64,000 bases of DNA. It comes from a virus. The translations under genes and the position numbers were made by a program. This document shows positions 13,551 through 45,677 of the stretch, one piece after another. Each line of letters opens with the position of its first letter. The stretch's first letter is position 1. The DNA is taken from IMG/VR virus record IMGVR_UViG_3300049846_000430, positions 1-64,000 of that record; one strand, given 5' to 3'. The notes under the pieces are model-generated. The model was not told the DNA's origin. It searched no databases and saw only the letters and a program-made list of their open reading frames with translations.

Positions 13551-13555
13551 ATAAT

Positions 13556-13885: not shown

Positions 13886-13900
13886 CATGTCAAAAACTTT

Positions 13901-13918
13901 TGCCGGGTAACTCCGGCA
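13901..13918. other. Intergenic GC-rich hairpin TGCCGG-GTAACT-CCGGCA
   Basis: Perfect 6-bp inverted repeat at the end of the fibre cassette; no clear U-tract, so the role (weak terminator or processing site) is unresolved. Confidence 0.5.
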
Positions 13919-13950
13919 TTAGAAACTCAAAAAGATAATACATAATTATG

Positions 13951-13958
13951 TATTTTTG
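13951..13958 (+). promoter_or_regulatory. Bacteroidota-type -7 element TATTTTTG
   Basis: Matches TAnnTTTG, 33 nt upstream of ATG 13992. Confidence 0.4.
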
Positions 13959-13991
13959 ACAACTAGAAAAACCAACCCAAAAACCAAATAT

Positions 13992-32400: not shown

Positions 32401-32606
32401 CTGCACAAGACAGGATTTTCTTTACTCAACTTAACGGATATATACGTGATCTTAATGCAGCTAATATGAATTATCAGAAGCCTTCAGATCAACGTAAGAA
32501 GTTCAGACACTACTACAATAGAGTTATTCTTAGAAGACAAAACTCTGAGAATAGAAAAATGCTCCTTAAATTAGCAAACACAAAACTTAATCTTTCATTC
32601 AGATAA
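26454..32606 (+). CDS. Tail stabilisation / muzzle protein with inserted vWA and Cys-rich domains
   Basis: FIKGMVKD...WTHARN...GNEPSN N-terminus, GFMRDEQYAFFIRW, WTVSYDPKANAWISFHDWHP and LWRHN C-terminal motifs; DVSLS MIDAS insertion. Confidence 0.75.
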   Translation: MAENNFTNTSSIETNVFIKGMVKDPNASFVQKDNWTHARNTVNNSVDGDVAVIGNEPSNIQCASIPYPIIGAIHTYRDQWVIFATDDVNSEIGLFDDSECKYTTLINAPCLNFNRKHLITGAAKENFDCTWQVYWDDGNNPSRTLNIDRIPYIRFIVSPPGADCVEYADTTELDCEKIRLAPLLTTPCVKLTKAADGGQLRNGSFQAFIAYTVNGQRQTDYIGVSNVQSLFDHNDLAGSLHISVTNLDKEFDYYELVILSNNTQNTVAKRIGLYSTEQSDITIDYIDQSLVSVPLEVLPLRSPAYEKSEQMYTVNDWLIRSGPTEQFDFNYQPLANQIQTNWVVAEYPENYYYKGGNSTGFMRDEQYAFFIRWIYNTGERSSSYHIPGRGPRVVGQNQFGDFIDETAINVGQNSLSPDEYNFQVFNTATQTAGPLNIPTDDGGVIIAKGDMAYWESTERYPATRPDIWNANNNPAAPWATSGNPQHDLCGKPIRHHKMPSEETSPLLVIHNTTNKTIRILGVEFSNIALPRFNDGSIIPNIVGYELLRGSREGQKSILAKGIFRNMRAYTIPDAENDAIKLEGLYPNYPYNDLRADVYFHDGTGGKRTDKCENSFSSSKSNYPPITGFKQDVFTFHGPDLMFKRPFLSAYETRLYGALHGDAVGYFIKSENHPQNKLLRNGGVLLAAIIGIGYAISQIQGTRSETFDPATTAISSTTGTILGQTTGNIGPVGVNLPFAAGISTAAGIALNTLMNVPITGVNTFYLNPLTSDASKLPSLVDGNATNAAAFAVNINSHAQAGLTPGLIGGKYSLNYTYNSPTSSLPQLLKGVFSVAVLSITNIAIGAQEIIDLLYNLVAFSDFAYKHNSHGLYSEYAKTLDQNTIYRSKNTDSNYIGSSFQGFGASYKINNLFRPGTVAVETQNSFSIPEVFTGLPIKDISRYTIGGDATDDFGNTFMNDPGQKQKKKISALYGALKFGFENQYGQLDGIKQVQMRGCIELVETNNPLKKYTSQAIFSGDTYVGRYTEKTIMPIFTDFLYGQPDQYPYDYLKRVNIPYPRFWMDTRKYDTSALARAIMAPGILFGINGTTINNLLPNDLFYLDRGSGTCSIFDQIVDKDDLNSAFAMRTAYMYTHCSGIQDFYIESEINLAQRDWEDDPRYRHYDPYEYNNVDDLFNAAIIRDGNFYKYDYSLSISRFLTNFSSFGNMQMRDYDPLVAEKCYSYYPKRLIYSLQAQLEAKKDFWRVFLPNNYKDFKSKVNVIKPINKSGALIFFPYLSPQMFQGLDTLETDLGTKLTIGDGGLFSQPFQNVANSDLPNEYGSCESSRSVINTPFGLFFISQAQGKVFQYTGNLVNIANAGMKWWFNKYLPSVLIRQFPELEDSKLSDNPVIGIGCQAIYDINDDIVYFTKKDYAVREEYLNIMSYDPVTQKFLLNSTTVVPLGDPLFFENCSWTVSYDPKANAWISFHDWHPDLVLPSIRHFLTAKTQATNEPQCPPNYNYNPVTGKCERTQQITEKAPVVVNEVISPIVGSPSGCFIDIVIAVDVSLSTGGASAPIGQAERLFVTEFINHPTIQAGMTAGKIQIGFVTYAQSVNIWADPLTGITMSNTVTAVDADAFLVSNFASPGAGTDLIDAMNDAQNVLNAKGNSSLGSRVVQPSFKQHMIVLTDLDNSPPIFAGVGCQYQSVTFGPPCTGNYRQFVSAVYVDATNPVPTSTILSEITCGQPSLEYGIAGNNLGDVENIVNDIANFTCEPGGYSCSCPAGYTLVYKDLNKNTYTSPTGVCHPEYERLCRKVTCNCPPPPFPGSVTTQSGICDDVYLVGDPNYVNNNPVICKYYTLQQTPPSYTLGTLWRHNDRCDSYSNFYGISYPWEVEFTETTGQNVNTLRSIEYQLECYVYKGDLINECGDDRWHDLDWNFDEAIIYNTEQVSGLLRLELNPKDDPFGMMQYPIIGPSDIRILFSKEEQKYRFNQFWDITKDRGEFTSAQDRIFFTQLNGYIRDLNAANMNYQKPSDQRKKFRHYYNRVILRRQNSENRKMLLKLANTKLNLSFR

Positions 32607-32607
32607 T

Positions 32608-35190
32608 ATGCAAAAGTCTTTTAGATACTCTGACAGAAGAGGATTACCAGGTGGTCCAAATGAAGAATCCTCTTTTGGTGAGGGATTTATTGTCAGTGAA
32701 AGAGGTCAATGGGATTATCCGGGTATGAATACTCTGGTTCCTACAGATGGCAACATTACAATGCAGGGTGTTCCATATCCGGTAATGGCACAACCCGTAT
32801 ATCCAGATTGGGCACAGCCTGCTATTGGACCCGCAACAATGATGTATCCAGATCAAGATTATTATTTTCCTGGTGCAGTGGCTGTTGCAGAAACACCTAT
32901 GGCAAGATATGGTGGTGGGTTAAGAAAGTATCAAACTGGTAAAGAAGTTAATAATAATGCTGCAGTTAGCAATGGTAATCTTCCTTATGATCCTAATTGG
33001 CAAGATATCAAAACACTAGAGGAAATAAGGATTTCTCCTTATATGAGAATGAGGTCACAACTTGATACTCCTGAAGCAAGAGATCAATGGATAGATGAAA
33101 ATCTCCCAAAGTTCTCAAGATCAATGGGTATTAATAGAGATAACTGGAATCCAAATGAATGGGAAAAATATCAGAAGCACATAAACACAAAACTTGCAGA
33201 AGATATTTTTAAAAGAAAACCTTTTACTGCTGGTGATGGAAGTAGATTGGAGAATTTAAAAAGATATACACCTGAAGAACTGAATATCATTAAAGGATCT
33301 AGTTATGCGAATAAAATTGAACCTACTGTTTGGGAAAAATTTGAACAAGGTTTATTATCTATTGGTAATGTTGGAAGTCCTGTTAAGTTTAAAAATGAAA
33401 ATTTAACTCAAGAGGAAGCAAGACAAGAAAGTACTCCTTTAAATCTACTTCAACCACTTTCTATTCCACAAAAAATGGTTCAGGCTGGTTTTGAGAGAAT
33501 AAGACCTACTGTAACTGGGGGGTATACTATGTCAGAAGCTTTGTCTGGTGTGGAGAATGATGCACCAATGGCTGACAAATTTTATACAGATCCTCTCAAT
33601 TTTGTTGGTATGGGGTTATTTAAAGGTTTAGGTACAGGCTCAACAATAGGAAGAAATATTGGTAGATTTGGTGAAGCTGTAAATTATGTACCAGAAGATA
33701 TTGCAGGTTTTGCTAATATTGGATCTGATGCAGCAACCACTGCTTCAAAAATTAATCCTAAAGCCACACAGTTGACATTTGATTTTGGTCTTCCAAAAGC
33801 TCCTGTTAATGATGATCCATTTGGAGTTTACACTTCAGCTGAAAAATTAATTAATGATCTTCAGAAGATAAAAGAAACAGAAAAAAATGTTAAAAATCTA
33901 AGTGATTATGAAAACACAATACAGGAAGTTTTTGGAGGTCTTGAGGGTTATAAAAAAGCAAAAAATTTATATAAAGGGGATAATTCTGAATATTTAACAT
34001 TTGATCAACTTGTAGAAAAAATAAAAGGAAAAGCTTCTGAAAACATAAAGCAAAGTTCTTTAAATCTTCAAAAACCTATTACTTCTGAAAAAATAACTTA
34101 TCAGAAACCATTAAGTACTGATCAGGAGTATATTGATTGGGCAAATAAAATTCATCCAGATTTGGCCCGTATAGCTACACCAGAAGAACTTAGACAAGCT
34201 CATATTGAGGCCCTTGATTATTTTGGTAAAAGCCCTGTTGGACTTGAGGGTAAAGAATATGGAATGTATATGAGGAATAAATTTGCTGATAGAATTCCAT
34301 CATATACATATCCAACATCATATGATTTTGAAGGAAACATTTTACATTTTCCTCCTGATCATCCACATACTTCTTTTATGCCTTGGGGAACAGCTGAAAC
34401 CGCATCATTAAAACATGGCAATAGGTATACTACACTACTAGATGATATATTGAGAAATCAAGGTTATAGTACTCAATTTTTAACACCTCAAGAAGTAAAT
34501 GCAATTTATGGATATGCTAAAGGTTATGATGCACCAATAAACGGTGTATTAAGAGCTCAATCTGCTCAGTATAACCCTTCTTTATTAAATAGTCTTAATC
34601 TTTCTCTTAAAACTAAACCAGGATCTAAAACTGCTGAATTTTATGGTGACATTGCTGAGATGCTTAATCAAGGTATTCAAAGAAATAAACTAAGAAATCC
34701 AATCTCAGTTAAGAGAGGCATTGGTTCAGATTATAATGTTGAATTACTTCATCCTACAACTTTTGAACCTACTGGTCAAATAGTAAAAAGATCAGAACTC
34801 AATGTAGGAGATATTTTTAAAGATGCTTCATTTTTATCTTCAAGTCATCAAGGACCTCTTTATGAGTGGGGAACACCTGGACTTTCAGAATATATAGATT
34901 TACCAGGAGGAGGTATTCAATCATATGCATACCCAAATGCTTTATCTTGGTCTCCATTTTTAAATGAGTTTGAATTTATTTTGCCAAAAAATCTTGTACG
35001 TAGGGTAGAATTAATTACTGATAATCCAATGTCTGCTGGATACAAGTATAGAACTTCTATTTTAAATCCATATCAAATGGGAGGCACTGAAGATGAATCA
35101 GATGAACAATTTCCAATGGGTGCAATGAATGTAAACATACAAGATATACCTGATGATGTGCTTGCAATAATGATAGCCAATAACAGATAA
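32608..35190 (+). CDS. Putative ejected cargo protein with C-terminal ADP-ribosyltransferase domain
   Basis: AIYGYAKGYDAPINGVLR, VKRG (R), FLSSS (S) and NEFEFILP (ExE) motifs of the R-S-E ART clade; flanked by RYGGG and YQMGG motifs. Confidence 0.7.
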   Translation: MQKSFRYSDRRGLPGGPNEESSFGEGFIVSERGQWDYPGMNTLVPTDGNITMQGVPYPVMAQPVYPDWAQPAIGPATMMYPDQDYYFPGAVAVAETPMARYGGGLRKYQTGKEVNNNAAVSNGNLPYDPNWQDIKTLEEIRISPYMRMRSQLDTPEARDQWIDENLPKFSRSMGINRDNWNPNEWEKYQKHINTKLAEDIFKRKPFTAGDGSRLENLKRYTPEELNIIKGSSYANKIEPTVWEKFEQGLLSIGNVGSPVKFKNENLTQEEARQESTPLNLLQPLSIPQKMVQAGFERIRPTVTGGYTMSEALSGVENDAPMADKFYTDPLNFVGMGLFKGLGTGSTIGRNIGRFGEAVNYVPEDIAGFANIGSDAATTASKINPKATQLTFDFGLPKAPVNDDPFGVYTSAEKLINDLQKIKETEKNVKNLSDYENTIQEVFGGLEGYKKAKNLYKGDNSEYLTFDQLVEKIKGKASENIKQSSLNLQKPITSEKITYQKPLSTDQEYIDWANKIHPDLARIATPEELRQAHIEALDYFGKSPVGLEGKEYGMYMRNKFADRIPSYTYPTSYDFEGNILHFPPDHPHTSFMPWGTAETASLKHGNRYTTLLDDILRNQGYSTQFLTPQEVNAIYGYAKGYDAPINGVLRAQSAQYNPSLLNSLNLSLKTKPGSKTAEFYGDIAEMLNQGIQRNKLRNPISVKRGIGSDYNVELLHPTTFEPTGQIVKRSELNVGDIFKDASFLSSSHQGPLYEWGTPGLSEYIDLPGGGIQSYAYPNALSWSPFLNEFEFILPKNLVRRVELITDNPMSAGYKYRTSILNPYQMGGTEDESDEQFPMGAMNVNIQDIPDDVLAIMIANNR

Positions 35191-35191
35191 C

Positions 35192-38100
35192 ATGAACTGG
35201 AAAGAATTTACAATGAAGTATGGTGGTGGACTCACTAAGTATCAAAAGAGAGGTGAGTTCAATTGGAAGACATATAAGGATGTAGGCATACAGACTTTAC
35301 CAAGTAAATCTCAAATAGTTGCTGCTCAAGGACAACAAAGGGATAATGTCTATGTTAATCCTGTTGTAAAAAATGCAGCTCAGTTGCAAAGGATAAATCA
35401 AATAGAGGAAGAAGAAAGACAAAGAAGAATTCAAGAAACTGCAGATAGAGTGCGAGGCACACTAAGAGCAACTACTGATGCAGATATAGAAGCTCAAAAT
35501 AGAGAAGACTATACACTTACAGGAAGAGCAAGAAGTCTTGGTAGAGGAGATTTTAACCCTTTAGTTGTAGCAGCCAGTGCTGCAGATTTGATTAATCCTG
35601 CTTCCTATTGGTATGCCGGTAAAGATTTTGGAAGAGGTGTAAAACAAACTGGAGAAGGGATAGTTAATCTAGATCCAGAACAAATAGGTTCTGGATTATT
35701 ACAAACAGGATTAAGTGCTTTACAATTGTATCCCGGAGCATCTACTGCCAGATCTGTTATAAAAGGAGCTGCTCCACGTCTATTTGGTTCTACAATGTCC
35801 AGTCAAGCTAATGATTTTTTAAGATCTGTAAGATCAATGGATGACTTTGCTACTGGCTCGCCATCTGTTTATAGAACTCAGCCAGGATTAAGTTCAGGAC
35901 CAATAAGTTCAACACCTGCTATATCAAGAGTTGGTAGTACTTCTGGACAAGCATTTATCCCATCTGCAAAACAAACCGGTAAGTATTCTCCTAGTATTGT
36001 TAGTGATTTAAGCTCGTTTTTTGCTCCATTTAATCCTAAAAATTTACAAACAAATTCCGGATTAGAATGGATGAAGCAGTGGTATTCAGATCCTGATATT
36101 ATAAGAAGAACTGAAGGTAATTTTCCAAAAGGATTTTCAAAATTTTCAATTATAATGGATTCCGATAATATTGGATCTAAAGCTCTAAAACATTTTAAAA
36201 ATAAATTAAATGCATATGAACCAAAAAATTATATTGATTTATTGAAAGATCGTGGGTTAAAAAAATATCTTCAAGCAAGTATGGGAAGTAAAGGACTTTC
36301 TGCTGGCTATCCTTCAGGTATATATGTCAATAGGACAGCTGCATTTCCTTTTGACAAGAGAGGATTAGAATCTACCAGAGTACATGAATTAACTCATTTA
36401 ATAGAGCATAATGGTGCTATTTTTAATGATGATAACATTAAGTCATTACTAAAACCTTTTGGATATTCTTCCTTATCTGAAGTTCCTGAAAATAAAACTT
36501 TGAGTTTTATAGATAGAGAAATAAGGGGTATTAATCCTGAATATTATTTAGAGCCTAGTGAAATACATGCTAGAATGAATCAAGGAAGATTTAATTTTAA
36601 TCTTACACCAAAAGATCAATTTACCACTAAAATGTTTGATGAAATATCTAAAAAATATGATTGGTATGGAATGGGAAGATATATAAAAGATAAAGATGCT
36701 TTTATAGATTTAATGAATAATTTTTGGGCAATACCTGCAACAGTTGGTATTGGTGCCGGAGCTTATCAACAGTTTAATCAAAAACCTCAAGGAACTTATC
36801 AGTATGGTGGTCCTACTATAGATTTAAAGCTTCCTCAGTTTGAAGAAGATAAACCCAGACCTTTCTTTGAAATGAGTGGTGCTGGCACTGGACCACAATA
36901 TGATATGTTTGGTTATGGTTATATTCCTCTTGGTAAGAACTTAGGTATATCTGCAGATCTAATGAGATGGAAAGAAGGAGATTGGCGTGGTGGTAGATAT
37001 GGTATAAGCGGAAACATAAACATTCCAATTAACAGAGGTGAGAGAAGAACACGTCCGGATATGAAAGATCCAGTAATGTATCAATATGGAGGAGCATCAA
37101 GAGCTGATACTTTAAATCTTTTAGCAAATACTAGAGCAGTTCGGAATTATTATACGGGAAGGGACTATACACCTGATGTAAATTATACTGGACGTAACTT
37201 GGTAAGCCCGTCAACATCAATGTATAAAAATATATGGGAGGCTTTAAAAGCAGATAGAAGTGGTTTTATAGCTACCAATGCTGCATATGGTATTGTAACA
37301 CCCTCAGGTCAAAGAAAATTAAGTATGAGTGATTACTATAGACCAATTGACCGTAATAAATTTTATCAAAGGGAAGATCAAAATCTTATTTTAGATACTA
37401 GAGCTCCAATGCAACTTTATGATAAGAGAATTGAACCTACTGGTGTATTGGGATATACTAATATAAAACCAAGTGATCCTATGTCATCAGATATAATTCA
37501 TTTTTATACTTATGATCCTATATCTATTACACCTTGGGATATGCTTAGTACAAAACAGAAAAAGCAAAGGATTAATAAGTATGGTGTTTCTGGCACTCCT
37601 TATGAAAGTAAGCAAGACTTTATAGAAAAGACATCTGATCAAGAAGTTATTAGAAAACAAAAACTTCTCAAAGAAGCTGGCTTATATAAAGGGGAAATTG
37701 ATGGTGACTGGGGAACCGGTTCTGAGAAAGCTTGGAAAAAGTATATGGAATTAAATACAATTCCAACAACTACAAATACTTCAAACACCATATCAGAGAC
37801 TCAAGTAATTCCCAGCACCCCAAGATTTAATATTCAAGGTATTATAGCAGATCAATATGTTCCAGATGCAAAAGATCAAACATCTAGAGAATATAGATAT
37901 AGGATAAATACTGATAAAGGTTTTGATGTAATTAAAAGCAAAAAAGATTTTGAAGAATGGAAACAAAGAAATGCAGCAGAGTATCAACCTTATTATCAAA
38001 GATCAACAAATGCTCCTATAGACTATAATAAAGGAAGAATACAAGAATATCTAGAAACACCCACCCTAATGTATACTGGAGATGGTACAAGAAGAAGTGG

Positions 38101-39244
38101 CGGTGAATCATCATATCAGTATGGAGGTGGTTTTTTACCTACAAGATATACTTCTAATCCTTATGATCCTGCAATAAAAAATTTCAATGATAGTTTAAAT
38201 TTATACAAAGGATATGTAATGCAGGATTATTTGATGGGTCCAAAAAATGAAAGAATATCTCCTGGAACTCGTATATCTTGGACACCAGCAGAATTAAAAA
38301 AGGATAGAACTAAAAAGTGGAATCCAGTTTTAAAACAAAAGATTGCTGATGATTTTCAAAATCAAGAAGAAATGTTTGCATCTGATTTTGTAAATGAAAA
38401 TAATAAAAAACTAGTAAGATACTATAAATCTCTTGGATTTACAGATGATAATATAATGTATCATACATCTGCAGATCTAGTTCATCCTACAATTAGAGCA
38501 ATAGGTACTTACATGGATGGTTCAGCATTAAGTCCTATTTATAAAAAACCAGTTCAACCTGTAAAATATGCTGATCCAAAAGTGGTAGAAAAACAAAAAA
38601 TACTTAAAGATGCGGGGCTTTACACAGGAGAATTAGATGGCGTGTGGGGGAGTGGTTCTAAAAAAGCGTGGGAAGAATATACAAAAAGAAATACTACTCC
38701 TAGATCATTAGATGGGATGACTGAAGTTACATATCCTACTTCTACTATGATAGAAACTACAAAGTTAGATCCTAACGGCAATCCTGTAACAGAAATACAT
38801 TATTATGATGATCTTAGAACCAGAGAAAGAAAAGATCCAAAAGTTCAGAAATATTTAGTACAGACATATAATCAAATGTCCACACCATATAAGAAGGCAG
38901 CTGTTGCAAAATATGGTGATCCTAGCAAAGTTCCTTTTCAGGGTGTAAACATATATGAATTAAATCCTAATCCTTATATGAAAGAAGAAGGAGGTGAAAC
39001 AAATCTGTTTAACTGGAACAATTTAGATCAATGGTTTAAGAATGGTGGTGAGTCAGACTTTGTAAATAACATTTACAGTGATTACATGGATGGTGTTTAT
39101 GATGGTACACCTTTGGAAGAGAATGCCAAGAAAGTGTATGATAAATTAAACACTATATACTATAGGCAAGCAAAGGAATCAGGTATGACTCCACCAAACT
39201 ACATTATGACCAATGTAATTAAAAAAGCTTTGAAACCTTCATAA
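35192..39244 (+). CDS. Putative ejected polyvalent cargo protein: zincin metallopeptidase plus two peptidoglycan-binding modules
   Basis: HELTH (36383) with downstream EIHAR (36560); two QKxLKxAGLYxGExDGxWGxGSxKAW repeats (37658, 38594); modules separated by YQYGG. Confidence 0.7.
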   Translation: MNWKEFTMKYGGGLTKYQKRGEFNWKTYKDVGIQTLPSKSQIVAAQGQQRDNVYVNPVVKNAAQLQRINQIEEEERQRRIQETADRVRGTLRATTDADIEAQNREDYTLTGRARSLGRGDFNPLVVAASAADLINPASYWYAGKDFGRGVKQTGEGIVNLDPEQIGSGLLQTGLSALQLYPGASTARSVIKGAAPRLFGSTMSSQANDFLRSVRSMDDFATGSPSVYRTQPGLSSGPISSTPAISRVGSTSGQAFIPSAKQTGKYSPSIVSDLSSFFAPFNPKNLQTNSGLEWMKQWYSDPDIIRRTEGNFPKGFSKFSIIMDSDNIGSKALKHFKNKLNAYEPKNYIDLLKDRGLKKYLQASMGSKGLSAGYPSGIYVNRTAAFPFDKRGLESTRVHELTHLIEHNGAIFNDDNIKSLLKPFGYSSLSEVPENKTLSFIDREIRGINPEYYLEPSEIHARMNQGRFNFNLTPKDQFTTKMFDEISKKYDWYGMGRYIKDKDAFIDLMNNFWAIPATVGIGAGAYQQFNQKPQGTYQYGGPTIDLKLPQFEEDKPRPFFEMSGAGTGPQYDMFGYGYIPLGKNLGISADLMRWKEGDWRGGRYGISGNINIPINRGERRTRPDMKDPVMYQYGGASRADTLNLLANTRAVRNYYTGRDYTPDVNYTGRNLVSPSTSMYKNIWEALKADRSGFIATNAAYGIVTPSGQRKLSMSDYYRPIDRNKFYQREDQNLILDTRAPMQLYDKRIEPTGVLGYTNIKPSDPMSSDIIHFYTYDPISITPWDMLSTKQKKQRINKYGVSGTPYESKQDFIEKTSDQEVIRKQKLLKEAGLYKGEIDGDWGTGSEKAWKKYMELNTIPTTTNTSNTISETQVIPSTPRFNIQGIIADQYVPDAKDQTSREYRYRINTDKGFDVIKSKKDFEEWKQRNAAEYQPYYQRSTNAPIDYNKGRIQEYLETPTLMYTGDGTRRSGGESSYQYGGGFLPTRYTSNPYDPAIKNFNDSLNLYKGYVMQDYLMGPKNERISPGTRISWTPAELKKDRTKKWNPVLKQKIADDFQNQEEMFASDFVNENNKKLVRYYKSLGFTDDNIMYHTSADLVHPTIRAIGTYMDGSALSPIYKKPVQPVKYADPKVVEKQKILKDAGLYTGELDGVWGSGSKKAWEEYTKRNTTPRSLDGMTEVTYPTSTMIETTKLDPNGNPVTEIHYYDDLRTRERKDPKVQKYLVQTYNQMSTPYKKAAVAKYGDPSKVPFQGVNIYELNPNPYMKEEGGETNLFNWNNLDQWFKNGGESDFVNNIYSDYMDGVYDGTPLEENAKKVYDKLNTIYYRQAKESGMTPPNYIMTNVIKKALKPS

Positions 39245-39265
39245 TTAGCTTATTTGATGTTTAAT

Positions 39266-39275
39266 TTGTATATTA
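39266..39275 (+). promoter_or_regulatory. Putative late promoter motif TTGTATATTA
   Basis: Intergenic, 10 nt upstream of ATG 39286. Confidence 0.55.
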
Positions 39276-39285
39276 GTATTATACT

Positions 39286-42200
39286 ATGGCCAGCAAAAGA
39301 TTAAGTAAAAAATACTATCAGACAGGGGGTGACACATCTCCTGCACCTGATATTCATCCCGACATGATTGAGATTGTTCAGGCTGTTGAGGCTTCTCTTC
39401 AATCTGGACTTGCTCCTCAAGAAGTTGTATTGCATCTTGCTGGTCAGGGGTATAGAGAAGATGAAATAAGTTTTGCTTTTGAGCAAATGGGTTATGATCC
39501 TGCTGCCATTGCTACAATAATGCAAGCTGCAGAAGCAATGTATAACCAACAGTCTCAGCAGCAAATGCAACCAGGTATGGAACCCGGAATGGAACCTGGT
39601 ATGGAGCAACCTATGGAACCTGGAATGGAAGGTCCTATGCCTCCAGTAACGGAAGCTGAGATGCAAGCTCAAATGGCTCAGGCTGCTTCACCACAATCAA
39701 ATGTGGGTAGCATGGAAGATGAAGGTATTTCAAAAGAAGAACTTGCTACAGCTTTACAAAGAGCTGCTTCTAAAGCTTTAGCTAGAAGAGGTAGAGAAAT
39801 GCAATATGGTGGTTTGCTTCTTCCTGGTGAACATGCTTATGATCCTGTTGCTACTGTGAGTCAGGAAATGGGTAAGAGATTTTACTATCCATATGTTCCC
39901 GGTCCTGGAGATTTAGGAGGTGCATTGTCTACTGCTGTTGGTTCTATTGGAAATTTGTTTTCAGGACGTGTTGGTGCAGATGGTTTACAAGAAGGAACTT
40001 TCAGAGACCTTGGTGCAAAAAGTGCAAGGTTTCAAAGATCTAAACCAATGCAGTATACTTACAATGTTAAATTAGATCCTAATGACAAGAATCAGTATGC
40101 TGCAGATATGGAAGATATGTATGCTGCTTCTAGAGGAGAAGGCAAGTTGAGAACTAAAGAACAGTATCAACAAGATGTAAATAAGTATTCAAGAACTAAT
40201 TTTAATACAGATACTGGCAAGTATGATGTTCTTTATACTAGCAGAGAATTTGACCCAAGTCTTTTAGGAAATAAACAGGTTGATCCTTATGAAGGATTTA
40301 GAAAGAAGAGTATTTCATTTGCTGATTGGAAAAGAAGAATGGATCCTGAGACTCTCAGCCTTCTTAGAGAAAATGAAATAAATGCACCAAAAGGAACAAC
40401 TATAGGTATATCTCCACAAGGTTCACCAACATCATATATTTCTGGCAAAGAGAATCCATACTGGTATAATACTATGATGGGATTAAACACACTCAAATCA
40501 AATCAACATGGAAATATGAGGGTGTCAGGTTATATGAAAGCAGAGGGTGGTCCTTTTAATGAAACTGAATATACACCCATTGATCCAGAACCAAAACGTG
40601 TGTTAAGTGGAATTCCTTATAAGGAGGAAGATTATGAATTTGCAGATCCAATAAGAAGAAGAGAATTAAGAGCTTATAAAAAGTATCAAAGGCTTCCTGA
40701 AGATCAAAAGACTAATCCTTTTTATAGAACACATGATGTAAAGCGTTCCGGTCTTAAAAGATACTGGGAAGATATTCCTGATATTGATTATAATAAAGCT
40801 CTTCAAGGAACTACATTTGGTCAGTTTATTAGTAGAGCCAATTCTTTAAAAAGTAGGGGGGATCAGTTTGGTAATATATATGAAACAGGACCTCATCCTA
40901 TAGAAACTGGATATATGCCAAGAAACATTTGGACATCACCAACTACTGGTATTTCATTATATCCTGATGATGATCCAAACAATATACTTAAGCAAATGGA
41001 TGACGCATCAGCTGATAATTTTAAACCATATATTTATTTTTTACAACCAGATGATCAAACTGTTTTACCAGCAAATGTTGGATATCAAACTATTGTAGGA
41101 GGATCTGGAGCAATAAAAGGTCCTGAGAATTTAAAAAATCAAGATAAAAATCTTATTGATATAATGGGTTTTGGAAGTGAGGATATTCCAGCTGATAAAT
41201 ATCAAAAAACATTTGGTTATAATACTGATCTTATAAGAGTAACTACACCGCAAAGAAATAAAATTGCTGGAGTTACAGCAATTGATAAAGATGTTAATGA
41301 TTATCTTCATAAGATATATCAACAATATCAAAATGAAGATTTAAGCAAACTGTCAAAAGAAGAACGTGATGATGTAAAGTTAAAAAGAGAAGCTGAGGTT
41401 AAAAAATATCTTTTAGAGAAAGCGGGTCTTGATCCTGCACAGTATATGAGTACACTCATGCACTATAACTACACATCTCCTGAAATATATTCTGACATCA
41501 ACAGACCAGGCTTTACAGTTTTTGATCAGTATGGTGATGTGTATGATAAAAGAAAAAGAGACATGCCAGAGTTTATGAAAAGAATGAACACTAAAAAGTA
41601 TGGTGGTTATCTTCGTAAAGCTCAATTTGGTTATGAAAGTATGGGTGATAGAATGGATATGTTTGGAGTTGAAACTTCAGATCCAAAGATGTATTCTTCT
41701 GCAATAGCTTATGGTAAAGTAGATCCCCCAGATTTTTCAGGTTATGCACCAAGAGGCGTATACAGTTCTGCAATTCCTAATTCAGGTCTTTCACCTGTAG
41801 GTATGGTTAATATTCCAACAAGAAGAACGCCTGCCACTAGCTCAGTTCCTACAACTACTCCTTCTATTTCACCAGGTGTTGCTGTTTCTACTCCAAAACC
41901 AACGGATGAGATTAGCTCTGTAACAGCACCTACTGCAAGAGAAGCTTATGAGCCCATGAAGCCAAAAGAAAAAAGTGTAATAGTTCCGTCTGATGGTAAA
42001 ACATCTAAATCTTCAGCAGCCTCATTAAATCCTTTAGCTAAACCAGTTGATGTATCTAGATCAGTATCTGGCACAAGTGAGCTATATGACCCATTTGGTG
42101 TACCTACAGAGTTTGATAATCCTAAAATGACATCATCAGCTTTAGCTCTTGGTAAAACAACTGGTACTACAACAACTACACCAGCATCTCAACCAGAGGT

Positions 42201-42597
42201 AACAAAAAAGCTTAATCCTGAACAGTGGTTAAATAGACAACTCCAAAGACCGGGTATAAAAGCTTATGGTGATGTATCAAAAGCTGTTGTTGATACAGCT
42301 AACTTTGTAAACGAAGCATTTAAAGAAAGAGAACGTGCAGCATATGATAGCAGACTTAGAGAGATGACTGCAGCAGATAATGTATATGGTATTATCTTTG
42401 ATAATGAAAGAGGGGACTGGGATCCTAATTCAGGATTATTAAAAGTTGATAAATACGTACCTTATAGGATGCCTGACCAATTTAGACCTATAGCTGGAAG
42501 AGTTAAGTTTGGTGGTCAGAAAGATGATGTCTTTAATGTAGACATGAAAACACTTACACAATTAATTGCAGCTGGTGCTGATATTGAGATATTATAA
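39286..42597 (+). CDS. Putative ejected cargo protein (modular, low-complexity linkers)
   Basis: 1103 aa; five xxxGG motifs, M/Q/P/E-rich and P/S/T-rich linkers; C-terminal LIAAGADIEIL. Confidence 0.65.
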   Translation: MASKRLSKKYYQTGGDTSPAPDIHPDMIEIVQAVEASLQSGLAPQEVVLHLAGQGYREDEISFAFEQMGYDPAAIATIMQAAEAMYNQQSQQQMQPGMEPGMEPGMEQPMEPGMEGPMPPVTEAEMQAQMAQAASPQSNVGSMEDEGISKEELATALQRAASKALARRGREMQYGGLLLPGEHAYDPVATVSQEMGKRFYYPYVPGPGDLGGALSTAVGSIGNLFSGRVGADGLQEGTFRDLGAKSARFQRSKPMQYTYNVKLDPNDKNQYAADMEDMYAASRGEGKLRTKEQYQQDVNKYSRTNFNTDTGKYDVLYTSREFDPSLLGNKQVDPYEGFRKKSISFADWKRRMDPETLSLLRENEINAPKGTTIGISPQGSPTSYISGKENPYWYNTMMGLNTLKSNQHGNMRVSGYMKAEGGPFNETEYTPIDPEPKRVLSGIPYKEEDYEFADPIRRRELRAYKKYQRLPEDQKTNPFYRTHDVKRSGLKRYWEDIPDIDYNKALQGTTFGQFISRANSLKSRGDQFGNIYETGPHPIETGYMPRNIWTSPTTGISLYPDDDPNNILKQMDDASADNFKPYIYFLQPDDQTVLPANVGYQTIVGGSGAIKGPENLKNQDKNLIDIMGFGSEDIPADKYQKTFGYNTDLIRVTTPQRNKIAGVTAIDKDVNDYLHKIYQQYQNEDLSKLSKEERDDVKLKREAEVKKYLLEKAGLDPAQYMSTLMHYNYTSPEIYSDINRPGFTVFDQYGDVYDKRKRDMPEFMKRMNTKKYGGYLRKAQFGYESMGDRMDMFGVETSDPKMYSSAIAYGKVDPPDFSGYAPRGVYSSAIPNSGLSPVGMVNIPTRRTPATSSVPTTTPSISPGVAVSTPKPTDEISSVTAPTAREAYEPMKPKEKSVIVPSDGKTSKSSAASLNPLAKPVDVSRSVSGTSELYDPFGVPTEFDNPKMTSSALALGKTTGTTTTTPASQPEVTKKLNPEQWLNRQLQRPGIKAYGDVSKAVVDTANFVNEAFKERERAAYDSRLREMTAADNVYGIIFDNERGDWDPNSGLLKVDKYVPYRMPDQFRPIAGRVKFGGQKDDVFNVDMKTLTQLIAAGADIEIL
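39565..39639 (+). repeat. 12-bp coding tandem repeat (MEPG)n
   Basis: MQPGMEPGMEPGMEQPMEPGMEGPM. Confidence 0.8.
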
Positions 42598-42599
42598 CA

Positions 42600-45500
42600 A
42601 TGGCAAAAATCAGAGTAAAAAATCTGCCGGAAGGCTTTGAGATTAAAAATGGCAAGGTTGTCAAGAAGATGGCATTTGGTGGTCATACCACTGGTGATCA
42701 ATCTGAGTATGGTTTAGTTACTATACCATCATCCAGATATGATACATTCTTCAATAATGAAAAACAACCAGATGTAAGATATAGTATATCTGCTGTACCA
42801 AGAGATGTAGCTAACGTAGAAGCTGAAGGTGGTGAGACAGTTCTTGCTGATCTTAATAATGACGGAAGCTTTGGTCTTTATGATATAAAAGGAAAAAGAC
42901 ATAGCAATGGTGGAGTGCCTTTATACATGCCTCCTCAATCATTCTTTTATTCTGATACCCCAACAATGAAGTTTAAAAGAGATGAGCTTGCTGACTTTGG
43001 GATTAAATCAAAGAAAGGAATAACACCGGCTAAGATTTCAAAGATGCCGGGTTTTCAAATCAATGAATACTATGGTGCACTTAAAGATGAGTTTGTTGAT
43101 CCTATTATGAGGAATAGTGCAGAGCTTATGATTAATAAGAATCAAATGAATCTCTCTAAACTGGCATTTGCACAGGAAGCTAAAAAGAAATTTGAAGATG
43201 GTGTTCCTACAGCTTCCTATCCTTATCTTGCTTCCCAGGGTCAAGATCCTATTGAGTTTACACAAAGAATAGAAGAGATAAGCAGACAAGAGGCTGAGAT
43301 GAAAGCTTTAGCTTCTCTACCTCCAGATCAACTTCAACAGTTGATGATGCTTAGAGACTTTTTAGCCCAGGCTCAAGCTGAACAACAAGCAATGGCTCCA
43401 GTTAATATGGCACAAAATGGACCTATGGCTGTACCTGCTGCTCAGTATGGCGGTTCTCCATTTGAAGGAATGGAGATGGATATTCATGATCAATATACTA
43501 CAGAAGATGAGGCAATGCTAGGTAATGAAGATTTTGGTGCTATGCGGACTGGTGGTGAAGAGATGGAAGATGAAGAATATTCAAGGCAGAGTGGTGAAGG
43601 AGAACAGGTTGTTGTTGGAGAATATCAAACACAGAACTTTGATCTATGTCCCAGAGCTAGTGAGCTTTATGAAGAGATTGCAGAAGAAGGTGAGGATATT
43701 GCTATTGCACAAGAATCAGCAGCATTGCATGATCAATTGTTTGGCATAGAAAGAAATGCTATTGCTCAGGATTATGCTACAAAAGAAGATGTAGCTAATG
43801 CAAAAGAATTGGCAAGACAAATTATGGGCTTGGCTAAAGAGATGGGTTTGCTTAAAGCTCACAACTATATTAAAGACCATGTTAAAAAGATTGAAGAATT
43901 GGCTGGTAACATGGAAGAAAAAAGATATGGTGGTCAAAAAGATCTTCCCAAGTTTCAAGATAATGGTGAATGGAATTGGCAAGTAGATGCTCAAGGAAGT
44001 CCTATTGTAACAACTATTGATCCTGCTACAGGTTTTCCTATTGTTCCTCAAAATGGTACACCTGCTCAACCCCCAATTGTTCCTGATCCTTCTAAGACTA
44101 CAGTTGTAACTCAAAACGCAGTTGTTGGAACAAATAACCCAAGTCCTGATCAAGCATATGATGGTACACCAGCTTTAAAGGATTATTATGATTTGGAAAG
44201 ACTGCTTAAATCAAAAGATCCTAAATGGGTAGCCACAACAGATAGAGCTTATGAATTAGTTAAAGTTGCTGCAAAAAAATATAACTTTCCTCTTCCTTCT
44301 AAGGAGGAGATGATTGATAAATTTTTGAAGTATCAGAAAAACAACTATACTATTAAAGCAATTGCAACACCTGCTGAAAGACAGTTAAAAGGTTATGATA
44401 ATGAAGCTGCTGCTCTTGGCTATGGTGATTATGATAAGACTAATCAAAATACTCAGAGATTCATGGATGATTTGCAAAAAAGAAATAAAGCATATCCTGG
44501 GTATAAAATTGATCCAACTGAAACAAAACAAATTCAAGCTTTCTTTCAAGCTCTTTATTTAGCTGATAGAAATAATGCTGAACCATATCTTGATGTTTTT
44601 TATGAAGGTCCTAATCAAAATACCAACTGGGCTCAGAATCAGGAAATTTCTGATATTGATGCTTATTATGGAAACAATACAATCAACCAATTTGGAAAAG
44701 TAAGAGAACCAATAAAACCACCTCCTCCTAATAAAAAAGAAGGTTGTCCTTGTATAGATCCTTCTGGTAAATATACAGGAACTTATTCTAAGGACTGTTG
44801 TCCTACCCCTGGTGAGTTCAAAAGAAAATACACACCACCCCAATATCAATTCTGGGCTCAGGATGTTATTAAGGCAAATGCTATTGCTCAGCGTGATAGA
44901 AGAATGTTCATGCCTTGGCAACCTGCAGTAGGTATACCTCAAGTTGATTATATACTTGAAGATCCTACTAGAGAGATTGCTGCTAATCTTGAAGCTTACA
45001 ATATAGGCGTTCAAGGTGCAGGTGCATTTGGTGGACCACAAGCTCTTGCTGCTAGAACAGCACAAGGTACCGGTAAAGCTTTTGCTGCAAATGCAAATAC
45101 ACTTGCTAATGTAAATAGCAGAAACGTAGCAACAGTAAATGCTGGTAAAGCTCTTAATGCTCAGTTCCAGGAAAGAGGAATGAGAGAAGAAAGAGACAGA
45201 CGTGTTAAGGAGTATGATGATACACAGAAAGTTCTTCAAGAGTTTCTGAATGAAAGAAACTATGACAGAGAGAAGTTTGCTGATGCATATGCTAACATGC
45301 TCACCAATGCTGCTTACACATATGACCTTAACACTCTGAATCCTTACTATAACATTATGCCTGCTACCGGTGGTATTATTCAAATGACTAACACCAAAGG
45401 ACCATTCAAGCCCACACAACAAGGTGCTTCAACTCCTATGTATGAGCAACTTGAAAAGAAAGCTGTTGAACTTAATAACAAAGGTGTTCCTGAAAAGGTA

Positions 45501-45677
45501 ATAACTCAGATTCTAAAAAGTATGGCTGGTGAATCAATAACTACAGATGAAGAAGATGCAGTTATGGAAGCAATGAGAAAAAGTCTTAATTTTCCATTTA
45601 CTCCTACTAAAGCAAGAGGTGGAGAGAAGATGAAAAAATATGCAATACCTTTTTATACAGGCAAGATAGGATATTAA
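42600..45677 (+). CDS. Putative ejected cargo protein (crAss-like cargo with EAEGGE...GKRHSNGG domain)
   Basis: ANVEAEGGETV...GKRHSNGGVPL N-domain, coiled-coil C-terminus, multiple xxxGG motifs; two genes upstream of the RNAP polyprotein. Confidence 0.65.
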   Translation: MAKIRVKNLPEGFEIKNGKVVKKMAFGGHTTGDQSEYGLVTIPSSRYDTFFNNEKQPDVRYSISAVPRDVANVEAEGGETVLADLNNDGSFGLYDIKGKRHSNGGVPLYMPPQSFFYSDTPTMKFKRDELADFGIKSKKGITPAKISKMPGFQINEYYGALKDEFVDPIMRNSAELMINKNQMNLSKLAFAQEAKKKFEDGVPTASYPYLASQGQDPIEFTQRIEEISRQEAEMKALASLPPDQLQQLMMLRDFLAQAQAEQQAMAPVNMAQNGPMAVPAAQYGGSPFEGMEMDIHDQYTTEDEAMLGNEDFGAMRTGGEEMEDEEYSRQSGEGEQVVVGEYQTQNFDLCPRASELYEEIAEEGEDIAIAQESAALHDQLFGIERNAIAQDYATKEDVANAKELARQIMGLAKEMGLLKAHNYIKDHVKKIEELAGNMEEKRYGGQKDLPKFQDNGEWNWQVDAQGSPIVTTIDPATGFPIVPQNGTPAQPPIVPDPSKTTVVTQNAVVGTNNPSPDQAYDGTPALKDYYDLERLLKSKDPKWVATTDRAYELVKVAAKKYNFPLPSKEEMIDKFLKYQKNNYTIKAIATPAERQLKGYDNEAAALGYGDYDKTNQNTQRFMDDLQKRNKAYPGYKIDPTETKQIQAFFQALYLADRNNAEPYLDVFYEGPNQNTNWAQNQEISDIDAYYGNNTINQFGKVREPIKPPPPNKKEGCPCIDPSGKYTGTYSKDCCPTPGEFKRKYTPPQYQFWAQDVIKANAIAQRDRRMFMPWQPAVGIPQVDYILEDPTREIAANLEAYNIGVQGAGAFGGPQALAARTAQGTGKAFAANANTLANVNSRNVATVNAGKALNAQFQERGMREERDRRVKEYDDTQKVLQEFLNERNYDREKFADAYANMLTNAAYTYDLNTLNPYYNIMPATGGIIQMTNTKGPFKPTQQGASTPMYEQLEKKAVELNNKGVPEKVITQILKSMAGESITTDEEDAVMEAMRKSLNFPFTPTKARGGEKMKKYAIPFYTGKIGY

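Follow-up and report, generated by a model that had tools for sequence, protein, structure and literature searches.

A conserved glycine-containing peptide motif marks the joints between modules in the probable cargo proteins of a divergent crAss-like phage

The window analyzed here (64,000 nucleotides, positions 1 to 64,000 of IMG/VR record IMGVR_UViG_3300049846_000430) comes from a divergent, uncultured crAss-like podophage. Between a muzzle-like gene, which gives weak but collinear BLASTP matches to crAss001 gp44, and the RNAP genes lie four consecutive large ORFs, here called B to E. Because this slot is syntenic with the one that holds the cargo proteins of crAss001, B–E are probably cargo (ejection) proteins.

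26454..32606, + strand: muzzle-like gene, 2050 aa, PHROG virion structural families (upstream context)
32608..35190, + strand: ORF B, 860 aa; made up of the C-like family's N-terminal module, a module shared widely, an ADP-ribosyltransferase (ART) passenger and an acidic/amphipathic conserved tail
35192..39244, + strand: ORF C, 1350 aa; passenger modules, then the C-terminal module conserved in the C-like family
39286..42597, + strand: ORF D, 1103 aa; conserved aa 1 to ~450 and ~960-1103 around a variable middle
42600..45677, + strand: ORF E, 1025 aa; two conserved domains, N (aa 1 to ~257) and C (~523-977), with the junction and a variable middle between them

These four large proteins, probably carried in the particle and injected, are strings of exchangeable modules, i.e., "polyvalent" proteins in which family-specific conserved ends surround a series of passenger cassettes. 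The initial annotation is supported in its proposal of modular proteins in this slot, which is syntenic with crAss001, and of a motif marking their joints. Among the cassettes of this genome are helical bundles, peptidoglycan-binding repeats, an ADP-ribosyltransferase, and an HExxH module, and among those of relatives SLT, LysM, YkuD, lysozyme, and ART-PolyVal (the last in 2 of 32 C-like relatives, with a weak match in the 2224-aa ORF of this genome). A single gene in relatives matches B and C combined, the border between the two reading TAAcATG here, and 548 homologues of E were found.

All 18 GG positions that the initial annotation had listed are where it placed them, within the four + strand ORFs. 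In 1000 within-protein shuffles of B–E (4338 aa), GG alone was not enriched (34 observed vs 27.2 ± 4.9 expected; 93 shuffles reached 34), whereas [YF]GG (13 vs 2.5 expected) and [QKRA][YFMT]GG (16 vs 1.2) were matched by 0/1000 shuffles. Further, [MY].[YFMT]GG occurs nine times in B–E and never in the remaining 31,888 aa of the proteome, and the residue at -1 of GG is aromatic in 13/30 cases in B–E against 13/120 elsewhere (Fisher p = 1.3e-4), such that enrichment holds for aromatic-GG with its context and fails for GG by itself. The second element that had been proposed, L-x-K-[YAF]-Q, is real (four vs 0.16 expected, one per ORF and immediately following YGG), but is a degenerate second half of the full motif described below. 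Since both context and second element are enriched, ~4 full motifs and ~9 clear half motifs in B–E are real; most copies in this genome are bare xYGG half motifs that lack LPKAQ. KEEGG, KAEGG, MRTGG, and KARGG are weak members, while FKNGG, YQTGG, VKFGG, and MAFGG are GGs kept across each protein family. Twelve further GGs in B–E were missing from the earlier list, and those tested sit within folded domains. The muzzle-like gene has ten GGs, none in motif context, and no motif copy was found in the 5222-aa and 2224-aa cargo proteins or in the RNAP proteins, which act in the cytoplasm. Elsewhere in the genome, two small basic proteins carry motif copies 6-30 aa apart.

The features of B and C are as follows.

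32608..32922, + strand: B aa 1-105, N-terminal module conserved in the C-like family, with its end at the motif (22 HSPs)
32902..32949, + strand: full junction motif in B, ARYGG-G-LRKYQ-TG-KE (read from the sequence, as is that of C)
34474..35022, + strand: ADP-ribosyltransferase passenger, B aa 623-805 (Pfam PF03496, E = 2e-5, 24.5 bits vs cut-off 23.4)
35071..35187, + strand: YQMGG half motif and conserved 34-aa C-terminal tail of B
35213..35260, + strand: full junction motif at the N-terminus of C, MKYGG-G-LTKYQ-KRGEF
36383..36397, + strand: HELTH (HExxH) seen in the sequence of C at aa 398, putative zincin
36797..36811, + strand: YQYGG half motif, copy 1, C aa 536-540
37079..37093, + strand: YQYGG half motif, copy 2, C aa 630-634
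37637..37732, + strand: peptidoglycan-binding module 1, C aa 816-847 (Pfam PF01471, E = 3.2e-5; PHROG endolysin families)
38114..38128, + strand: YQYGG half motif, copy 3, C aa 975-979
38552..38698, + strand: probable peptidoglycan-binding module 2, C aa 1121-1169 (PHROG 17001 endolysin match; repeats the sequence of module 1)
38990 (first Gly), + strand: KEEGG in C, weak member
39035..39241, + strand: FKNGG and the conserved ~65-aa C-terminal module of the C-like family (~40 HSPs)

Two of the passenger modules named earlier were confirmed, the ART by PF03496, which its homologues P0121 and P0122 also carry, and the peptidoglycan-binding module by PG_binding_1 (PF01471), the PHROG endolysin-family match being a likely second copy. 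The "zincin" comes down to a bare HELTH, with no support in Pfam, PDB sequences, or the Atlas and a single hit among relatives. The 22 HSPs of B aa 1-105 fall on the N-termini of the relatives' gene upstream-but-one of E, most ending at ~aa 102-116, and its core (aa 26-103) recurs as an internal cassette in P0166-P0168, exactly between two xKxGG sites. The tail of B is kept from YQ[LM]GG on in P0123, P0176, and P0177 despite differing middle parts. Likewise, the ~40 HSPs of the C-terminal module of C hit relatives' C-termini, many beginning at aa 1282-1285, with G1285 nearly invariant and G1286 invariant in the family.

For D and E, the features are given with their AlphaFold2 context.

39313..39330, + strand: YYQTGG at the N-terminus of D, family-conserved GG, in pLDDT<50 segment 1-19
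39799..39813, + strand: MQYGG half motif, D aa 172-176, in low-confidence segment 156-186, right after helix 150-171
40546 (first Gly), + strand: KAEGG in D, weak member
41593..41640, + strand: full junction motif in D, KKYGG-Y-LRKAQ-FG-YE, in low-confidence segment 765-799, right after helix 749-767
42502..42594, + strand: VKFGG and conserved 26-aa C-terminal tail of D (ending LIAAGADIEIL), with helix 1087-1095
42669..42683, + strand: MAFGG of E (GG..TGDQ), in low-confidence loop 25-58
43440..43454, + strand: AQYGG in E, first half of the family junction, in disordered segment 258-355
43551 (first Gly), + strand: MRTGG in E, weak member
43656..43904, + strand: inserted four-helix module, E aa 353-435, pLDDT 85-93
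43920..43973, + strand: full junction motif in E, KRYGG-QKD-LPKFQ-DNGEW, coinciding with low-confidence segment 440-458
45609..45674, + strand: KARGG and basic C-terminal tail of E, in low-confidence tail 978-1025

In the model of E, segments of pLDDT<50 cover 27% of the chain and hold 5/5 motif sites, and 4/4 non-motif GGs are in folded parts; 5/5 sites of D are in low-confidence segments as well, though these cover 57% of a model of low confidence overall (mean 55). In three modelled cases a helix ends 4-8 residues ahead of YGG. The motif sites thus fall in predicted disordered linkers between folded modules, and the earlier statement that motifs lie at module borders, not inside them, holds in both models. 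The four-helix module of E, bracketed by AQYGG/MRTGG and KRYGG..LPKFQ, is present in the alignment only in the close relatives P0001-P0005. At the level of families, G14 of D is nearly invariant across 40 D-like proteins, as are G1076 and the C-terminal tail; in E, G28 is invariant and G27 nearly so, the junction consensus is PMAxYGxELPKAQxG, and the tail consensus is KKGKEIKKYAVPFYTGKxGy, with only G1008 invariant.

Among 59-80 related IMG/VR phages, the full form of the motif is Phi-[KR]-Y-G-G-S-L-P-K-A-Q-x-G; more generally it is Phi-[KRQ]-[YF]-G-G, to which the full version adds x-L-P-K-[AYF]-Q-x-G-x-E. In 59 related loci, full-motif density per 1000 aa is 0.81 in C-like, 1.09 in D-like, and 0.60 in E proteins vs 0.06 in muzzle-like and 0.05 in F proteins, and there are 64 instances of strict [LIMV]P[KR][AYF]Q in the three cargo families vs none in muzzle-like/F, i.e., the motif is confined to the three cargo gene families following the muzzle gene. 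In 32 non-redundant copies, positions -3, -2, -1, +2, +9, and +11 are conserved beyond the residues fixed by the search, giving a footprint of ~15 residues with at least eight conserved positions, in which L, P, K, A, Q, and the spaced G are nearly invariant across very divergent phages. The strict DNA pattern GG-x-LPKAQ-x-G was found in at least 120 IMG/VR stretches, and among the matches listed many are on 100-125 kb contigs and several stretches have two or three copies; the motif is conserved in >100 related viral contigs. In relatives it also stands immediately ahead of LysM (L003) and SLT (L031) domains. No description of it was found in the searchable literature.

The motif coincides with points of cassette swap, insertion, or loss among related phages, and the proposed swapping of modules at motifs is borne out by alignments and breakpoints. 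Where protein pairs of ≥65% identity differ by the replacement of ≥40 aa in one stretch, the upstream breakpoint is ≤3 aa from a motif in 43.5% of cases (null 6.4%, maximum 16.5%) and at LPKAQxG in 30.6% (null 1.1%), though a few conserved junctions, the E junction above all, dominate this statistic and the boundaries are therefore not phylogenetically independent. For example, P0166 and P0167, 78-87% identical in the modules that they have in common, are set apart by insertions of cassettes exactly at GG; in this genome, B aa 1-105 stops at ARYGG, and FKNGG is where the C-terminal module of C begins. Third-codon-position identity of motif copies is only slightly higher within one genome than between genomes (0.64 vs 0.54, n = 36), and there is therefore no strong DNA-level recombination signal.

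Several known systems invite comparison. In polymorphic toxins, short demarcation motifs (VENN in CdiA, PxxxxDPxGL in Rhs) border the delivery part and the variable passengers, with variation beginning right after them, as at the junction motif; the latter differs in sequence, in marking several joints per protein and internal as well as C-terminal cassettes, and in its setting, a virion instead of a secretion system. The T4 capsid targeting sequence is a short peptide governing the loading of internal proteins into the head (cf. phiKZ-type inner-body processing), and some motif copies likewise lie 10-30 aa from the N-terminus, but most are internal; the motif is unrelated to the L/I-x-E or S/A/G-x-E of the T4/phiKZ systems, and no T4/HK97-type prohead protease was found in a search whose only such profile was S78. 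Polyvalent proteins, in the accessible text of Iyer, Burroughs, Anand, de Souza, and Aravind (2017, PMC5512222), are large proteins of phages and conjugative elements that, like B–E, combine unrelated effector domains (ART, lysozyme/transglycosylase, LPD), adjoin or are fused to N4-like virion RNAP, and were proposed to be co-delivered with DNA, with processing predicted. B–E differ in that one conserved peptide delimits passengers between conserved end modules; the accessible text of PMC5512222 describes no junction motif (the word "linker" has no hits), and the hallmark MPTase-PolyVal profile has no match in this genome.

A structural parallel is crAss001 cargo protein C1 (gp45; Pfam PF25725), whose gene likewise comes right behind the muzzle gene, in the same slot; the protein has four A[YF]GG motifs (0/3000 shuffles) and, like E, ends in a K-x-GG basic tail. 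In the accessible text of Bayfield et al. (2023, PMC10172136), only residues 214-245 (tail-barrel rings) and 425-552 (portal) were resolved by cryo-EM; the first segment starts 4 aa after an A[YF]GG and the second right at one, residues 425-428 (AFGG) being modelled continuous with the domain. An Atlas feature search with the N domain of E gave crAss_CARG1 clusters as a lead (score 0.92). However, gp45 lacks the LPKAQ half, that text does not mention the motif, and neither the PF25725 profile against this genome nor the E-family HMM against gp45 gave a match; with no detectable sequence homology, the gp45 argument is an analogy for E and D.

We favor, with a probability of about 0.5, an uncut hinge or docking handle that is also a universal joint for cassette exchange. 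A serious if rather unlikely alternative is a maturation or release cleavage site, at which a protease of the phage or the host would act, either inside the capsid or once ejection has taken place, such that passenger enzymes would be freed from packaging-anchor end modules and the small basic proteins chopped into peptides, as in adenovirus precursor processing or for phiKZ/T4 internal proteins. Gly-Gly in exposed linkers is also what the adenovirus protease, ASFV pS273R, and C39 double-glycine leader peptidases recognize; the motif sites lie in such linkers at a distance of 10-65 aa from the termini, the end modules that they flank are conserved and resemble anchors, and the two small basic proteins, dense in copies, recall adenovirus core-protein precursors. 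Further, one ancestral gene was naturally split into B and C right at motifs, so chain continuity across the joint is dispensable. One candidate enzyme is a DUF2201_N putative metallopeptidase with a VWA domain, which adjoins a MoxR-like ATPase (E = 8e-17); further candidates are the HExxH strings of C and, according to the initial annotation, of the 5222-aa ORF, although the putative HELTH module of C, with one hit among relatives, is too rare to be the constant counterpart of so conserved a motif. Against cutting, the genome profile search gave no match to adenain (C5) or Ulp1 (C48), both of clan CE, HK97-type prohead protease (S78), or MPTase-PolyVal; the E junction, which is the best conserved, mostly has a single Gly (44/57 non-redundant cases) and seldom GG (4/57); the two giant cargo proteins are motif-free; and conservation reaches 8-9 positions past GG, a footprint that to our knowledge exceeds any known viral protease site. 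Thus, the di-glycine cleavage interpretation of the initial annotation is not supported; the docking tag that it named as the other option is the one that we prefer. Zincin autoproteolysis of polyvalent proteins was predicted in the accessible text of Iyer et al. 2017 (PMC5512222), whereas the main text of crAss001 papers does not mention cleavage and the gp45 model is continuous through AFGG-W, which by analogy would favor the uncut handle. In turn, bare xYGG half motifs look closer to a short protease site than to a long handle, copies 6-30 aa apart are odd for docking, and a cut chain would account more simply for gp45 lying to either side of the portal.

We consider it improbable that the motif is only a passive universal linker and recombination joint with neither partner nor protease, a helix-capping Gly turn and short extended stretch that would separate folding units and let joint recombination yield in-frame foldable chimeras. 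The clustering of breakpoints, the helix ends ahead of YGG, and the tolerance of any neighboring module fit such a linker, but it would need no near-invariant residues across very divergent phages, and both the weak DNA-level signal and the motif-free multi-module cargo proteins of the same virion speak against it. A post-ejection role in the host envelope (a handle for oligomerizing a trans-envelope channel, a site for a host periplasmic factor, or peptidoglycan attachment for cell-wall enzymes) is very improbable: the three motif-bearing families are those that carry periplasm-acting SLT, LysM, PG_binding, YkuD, and lysozyme domains in relatives and the RNAP proteins lack the motif, but this is purely circumstantial, the ART passenger and small basic proteins misfit the periplasm, and we know of no envelope-targeting motif that resembles it.

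Under the hinge-or-handle reading, the motif would combine a Gly hinge with a peptide handle that is not cut and may be bound by a conserved virion or ejectosome partner, e.g., the portal, tail-barrel rings, muzzle, or a conserved cargo domain. Loading, threading through the tail, and release would then still work for any cassette with a handle on either side, and because all modules share one joint, in-frame cassette exchange would be tolerated and fixed at these joints.

The window covers the first 64 kb of a virus record consisting of a single 113.4-kb contig, whose terminase, portal, and capsid genes matched PHROG families, and whose portal was closest, among deposited ones, to those of Leptolyngbya phage Lbo-JY46 (33%), the Cellulophaga phages phi17:2/phi4:1 (26%), and gut crAss-like phages (22-25%). 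Only the portal yielded such distant relatives: the deposited-phage collection gave no match in DNA and protein searches that used the region, C and E as queries, and neither did IMG/VR close-relative scans with C alone or D alone. The product of E had 548 homologues in metagenomes, and an IMG/VR scan with an E alignment recovered 80 syntenic loci in the order muzzle-like, C-like, D-like, E, F (F being the gene that follows E). The genes concerned are as follows.

26454-32606: ORF A, 2050 aa, with a weak, collinear BLASTP match to the crAss001 muzzle protein gp44
32608-35190, plus strand: ORF B, putative cargo protein
35192-39244, plus strand: ORF C, putative cargo protein
39286-42597, plus strand: ORF D, putative cargo protein
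42600-45677, plus strand: ORF E, putative cargo protein
48945 to genome position 64613: 5222-aa ORF, with weak, collinear BLASTP matches to crAss001 gp47 and gp50
genome positions 64617-71291 (L082:617-7288, in the numbering of a separate stretch of the genome): 2224-aa ORF resembling crAss001 gp49 (E = 5e-31)

In the 5222-aa ORF, one chain unites a gp47-like region (aa 2160-2345) with a gp50-like region (aa 3924-3990, E = 3e-13), the counterparts of two distinct crAss001 genes, and it also carries a DUF7831 domain near aa 4760-4870. Because the flanking ORFs match gp44, gp47 and gp50, and gp49 collinearly, B-E with F appear to fill the slot, flanked by the muzzle gene and the virion RNA polymerase genes, in which crAss001 encodes cargo proteins C1 and C2 (PMC10172136). 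From this synteny with gp44-gp50, we infer that B-E are virion components that enter the host together with the DNA. They occupy the same slot as C1 (gp45) but fail the sequence tests of that family: PF25725 (crAss_CARG1) had no match in the genome at E <= 10, the E-family HMM did not match gp45 significantly, and BLASTP of B-E against gp45 and gp46 found nothing, and the feature search of the Atlas offers no more than a lead to crAss_CARG1 (0.92). Separately, a 401-aa protein encoded just after the capsid gene (12345-13550) is 15.7% Gly with ASGTF(T/L)NC...SFG-type repeats; the pattern is suggestive of a beta-helix or fibre repeat, and Pfam and PHROG searches with it returned no match.

The initial annotation had listed 18 di-glycine motif sites in B-E, all of which proved to be where it had put them, with about 13 being convincing members of one motif. 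Its expectation of enrichment held for di-glycine in context and failed for di-glycine alone (34 observed vs 27.2 ± 4.9 in shuffles). B-E contain 13 copies of [YF]GG, compared with 2.5 in shuffles (0 of 1000 reached 13), nine of [MY].[YFMT]GG, compared with none in the remaining 31.9k aa of the proteome, and four of L.K[YAF]Q (0.16 in shuffles), the last occurring once in each ORF and each time immediately following a YGG. Twelve further di-glycines in B-E had not been listed, and those that could be placed sit within folded domains.

In relatives, the motif is fuller and sharper, reading Phi-[KR]-Y-G-G-S-L-P-K-A-Q-x-G-x-[GE] with a conserved footprint of ~15 residues, and L-x-K-[YAF]-Q in the window is a degenerate form of its second half. 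The full motif was concentrated in the three cargo families, and the strict form [LIMV]P[KR][AYF]Q occurred 64 times in these vs 0 in the two flanking families.

Copies of the full motif per 1000 aa in gene families of the related loci
C-like: 0.81
D-like: 1.09
E: 0.60
muzzle-like: 0.06
F: 0.05

A strict GG-x-LPKAQ-x-G DNA pattern was found in at least 120 IMG/VR stretches, mostly contigs of 50-125 kb among the matches listed. The best-conserved junction is that of the E family (PMAxYGxELPKAQxG), where 57 non-redundant cases comprised 44 with a single Gly, four with GG, and nine with no Gly, while GG is retained in the C-like and D-like copies. Two variants recur: D-x-x-x-CHKCGG-x-x-LPKAQ in C-like genes (aa ~132-324 in loci L002, L033, L036, L040, L043-L045, L055, L064, and L078), which resembles half of a zinc knuckle joined onto the motif, and YLANRDxVIKRE(M/L)AKAQ-x-GGET in D-like genes. 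Outside the window (72274-73678 of the genome; L082:8274-9675) lie two very basic proteins of 261 and 205 aa (K+R 22-23%) with six and eight di-glycines, respectively, most in MKxGG-type context and some 6-30 aa apart; among these are the full forms MKRGGSIPKKQDGG and MKSGGSMIKKQDGG as well as a variant reading CMKCGG. Both proteins terminate in GG followed by a basic tail, and neither had a Pfam match.

Weaker copies were seen in cultured phages, i.e., FQTGGYAKFQNAG and an N-terminal MKIRIIGLPKAQIG in Lbo-JY46, four [FY]Q-x-GG plus a C-terminal KWGGKKR in Cellulophaga phi17:2 gp041 (a virion structural protein by annotation), and four A[YF]GG in crAss001 gp45 (0 of 3000 shuffles). The N-terminus of E is itself strongly conserved (MAKI+I..LP.GFE...KK...GG..TGDQ; 42600-42700), and since a cargo-slot protein of Lbo-JY46 (L081, CDS 12868-14322) begins with MKIRIIGLPKAQIG, the start of E may be a motif-related handle. 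No mention of LPKAQ in a phage context was found in the literature searched, and a literature search for Lbo-JY46 gave no result.

What the motif marks became apparent from homologues, where module swaps at the motifs had been anticipated and where breakpoints and cassette indels do coincide with them. Each cargo family has a variable middle between conserved end modules. Residues 1-105 of B correspond to the N-terminal module of the relatives' single C-like gene and end at ARYGG, and the last ~65 aa of C correspond to its C-terminal module and start at FKNGG; given these matching ends, B plus C is a single gene that has been split at a joint (gene junction TAAcATG). Three B-type proteins from elsewhere (P0123, P0176, and P0177) retain the start of B together with its tail beyond YQ[LM]GG, but their middles differ, and the core of the B N-terminal module lies inside P0166-P0168 exactly between two xKxGG sites. 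Between P0166 and P0167, shared modules are 78-87% identical and cassettes are inserted exactly at GG. These two proteins come from a different phage group in metagenomes, have a C-terminal DUF6321, hold a longer unit at their joints (GG-x(3-5)-WEIIED), and begin MAKWEIIED..KKQTGG, as if with one more joint copy.

We quantified this in protein pairs by asking how often a replaced or inserted stretch of >=40 aa between HSPs of >=65% identity had its boundary within 3 aa of a motif, which replaced a looser test on all HSPs that had given a weak signal (8.5% vs 5.2%).

Boundaries within 3 aa of a motif, with null mean and null maximum
Upstream, any motif: 43.5% (null mean 6.4%, maximum 16.5%)
Upstream, LPKAQxG only: 30.6% (null mean 1.1%, maximum 4.7%)
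Downstream, any motif: 18.2% (null mean 6.6%, maximum 17.0%)

The boundaries are not phylogenetically independent, which leaves the effect size uncertain, while the exact single cases (P0166-P0168 and B/C) stand on their own. Third-position identity of the motif copies was 0.64 within loci vs 0.54 between them (n = 36), which does not make a convincing case for DNA-level recombination repeats.

Structure prediction likewise bore out the view that the motifs lie at module borders and not inside modules. An AlphaFold2 model of E from a 100-sequence alignment had two confident conserved domains, with all five motif-type sites (aa 27, 284, 318, 444, and 1007) in segments of pLDDT <50 and all four conserved non-motif di-glycines (aa 77, 104, 811, and 924) within folded regions. 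One four-helix module modelled with confidence (aa 353-435), present in the closest relatives only, is exactly flanked by AQYGG/MRTGG and KRYGG..LPKFQ. The D model had lower overall confidence than E, and 5/5 of its motif sites fell in low-confidence segments; in the two models, three copies sit a few residues past a helix end. In relatives, the motif lies 6-40 aa ahead of LysM and SLT domains.

Of the modules initially proposed, the ART of B (PF03496, aa 623-805) was confirmed by Pfam at 24.5 bits, just over the curated cut-off of 23.4, and peptidoglycan binding in C by one Pfam repeat, a second being likely from a PHROG match; the zincin came down to a bare HELTH, for which Pfam, PDB sequences, and the Atlas gave no support. 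Passengers in 32 C-like proteins were LysM (13), SLT (12), PG_binding_1 (7), YkuD (7), ART-PolyVal (2), and Phage_lysozyme (1), and the variable middle of certain E homologues contains SLT, GH108, or glucosaminidase. E itself had no significant match in a profile search of PDB sequences or a Foldseek search of PDB structures. A ~210-aa module of B (aa 137-347; 33016-33648) recurs at varied positions in ~50 metagenome proteins of 565-990 aa, at 39-51% identity in most; many of these have no nearby GG motif, so the module is a mobile one ranging beyond this phage group. The tail of D (42517-42594) is near-invariant and amphipathic (...LIAAGADIEIL), that of B resembles it and ends in DDVLAIMIANNR (35086-35187), and both lie 10-25 aa after GG; they could be C-terminal docking helices.

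In their make-up, these proteins match the polyvalent class (Iyer et al. 2017, PMC5512222), with B combining ART with other modules and C combining PG_binding repeats with an HExxH module. Among the hallmark domains, the zincin MPTase-PolyVal (PF18818) was unmatched in the genome, ART-PolyVal occurred in relatives and below threshold in the 2224-aa ORF (aa 544-620, 22.6 bits vs a cut-off of 31.2), and LPD23, LPD1, and LPD26 are weak leads only. In the accessible text of PMC5512222, the word "linker" is absent and no junction motif is described. The motif also recalls the demarcation motifs of polymorphic toxins, in that homology likewise ends right after a short conserved peptide, but its sequence differs from VENN and PxxxxDPxGL, making this a functional resemblance and not membership.

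Our leading reading, with a probability of about 0.5, is that the motif stays uncut and acts as a hinge or docking handle, at the same time providing a universal joint. The initial reading as di-glycine cleavage sites lost ground, and we now regard cleavage as rather unlikely. Profiles for Peptidase_C5 (adenain) and Peptidase_C48 (Ulp1) had no match in the genome at E <= 10, the HK97-type prohead protease (S78) and MPTase-PolyVal profiles were likewise unmatched in the genome, no peptidase turned up when B-F, the giant ORFs, and the majority of the large structural-module proteins were scanned against Pfam, and the HELTH module is not conserved among relatives. Cleavage is further disfavored by the single Gly in 44/57 E junctions, by a conserved footprint of ~15 residues, and by the lack of any copy in the 5222- and 2224-aa cargo proteins, those most in need of processing. 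GG-specific systems (adenain, pS273R, and C39) differ in the invariant Gly-Gly of their substrates and in their cognate cysteine protease (C5 and C48 profiles), and the T4-type capsid targeting sequence differs in being an N-terminal leader removed by a prohead protease, most copies here being internal. Residues 214-245 (tail-barrel rings) and 425-552 (portal) are the only resolved parts of gp45 (PMC10172136); the first starts 4 aa past AYGG(207-210), and because the second begins right at AFGG(425-428), its Gly-Trp bond is modelled intact. The crAss001 papers and supplements consulted reported no fragment, band assignment, or motif-spanning peptide for gp45.

In favor of cleavage, the sites are exposed and close to chain ends, the anchor-like end modules suit a release mechanism, the viable B/C split makes chain continuity across a joint dispensable, and the two small basic proteins carry many close-spaced copies, including a full one. 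Autoproteolysis of polyvalent proteins has also been predicted (PMC5512222), and a candidate peptidase exists, a DUF2201_N "putative metallopeptidase" that also has a VWA domain and is encoded next to a MoxR-like AAA ATPase. This pair (90888-93329 of the genome, minus strand; L083:6891-9329) lies in the early/replication block, with E = 8e-17 for DUF2201_N, E = 3e-17 for the VWA-like DUF2201 domain of the same protein, and a weak Pfam match for the ATPase, and holds the only peptidase-like profile match found in the genome. The residue after GG (tested for Pro at P1') was uninformative in distribution, the set being mixed with in-domain di-glycines.

A specific and slightly more doubtful version is that the motif is an address label for a dedicated processing system, in which a conserved phage peptidase, such as the DUF2201-type metallopeptidase or an HExxH module of the RNA polymerase polyprotein, would read Y-G(-G)-x-LPKAQ-x-G as its target and cleave the cargo chains either inside the capsid or once they have been ejected. 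Eukaryotic viruses process polyproteins; here, if this were true, a tailed phage would deliver a programmable effector set by polyprotein processing, which would explain one crAss001 cargo protein on both sides of the portal. That the motif is a passive linker between modules seems to us improbable, and a role in the host envelope is very improbable. We also considered DNA binding of the AT-hook type and Lys-Gln cross-linking, and discarded both: conservation of L, P, A, Q, and a spaced G suggests a specific peptide-protein interface, and ejection would be impossible for cross-linked cargo.

In gut and marine samples, crAss-like phages belong to the most abundant viruses, and to our knowledge, little is understood of how several megadaltons of protein are loaded into each particle or of which ones are injected. 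One peptide at every cargo joint provides a simple sequence rule to find cargo proteins in metagenomes and to split their passenger modules, and a concrete experimental handle on loading and ejection, with the same motif type present in cultured phages (crAss001 gp45, Cellulophaga phi17:2 gp041, and Lbo-JY46). Should the motif prove to be cut, a phage protease-substrate system of a new kind would come to light. As a joint, it gives a view of how injected enzymes diversify through cassette exchange at a universal joint.
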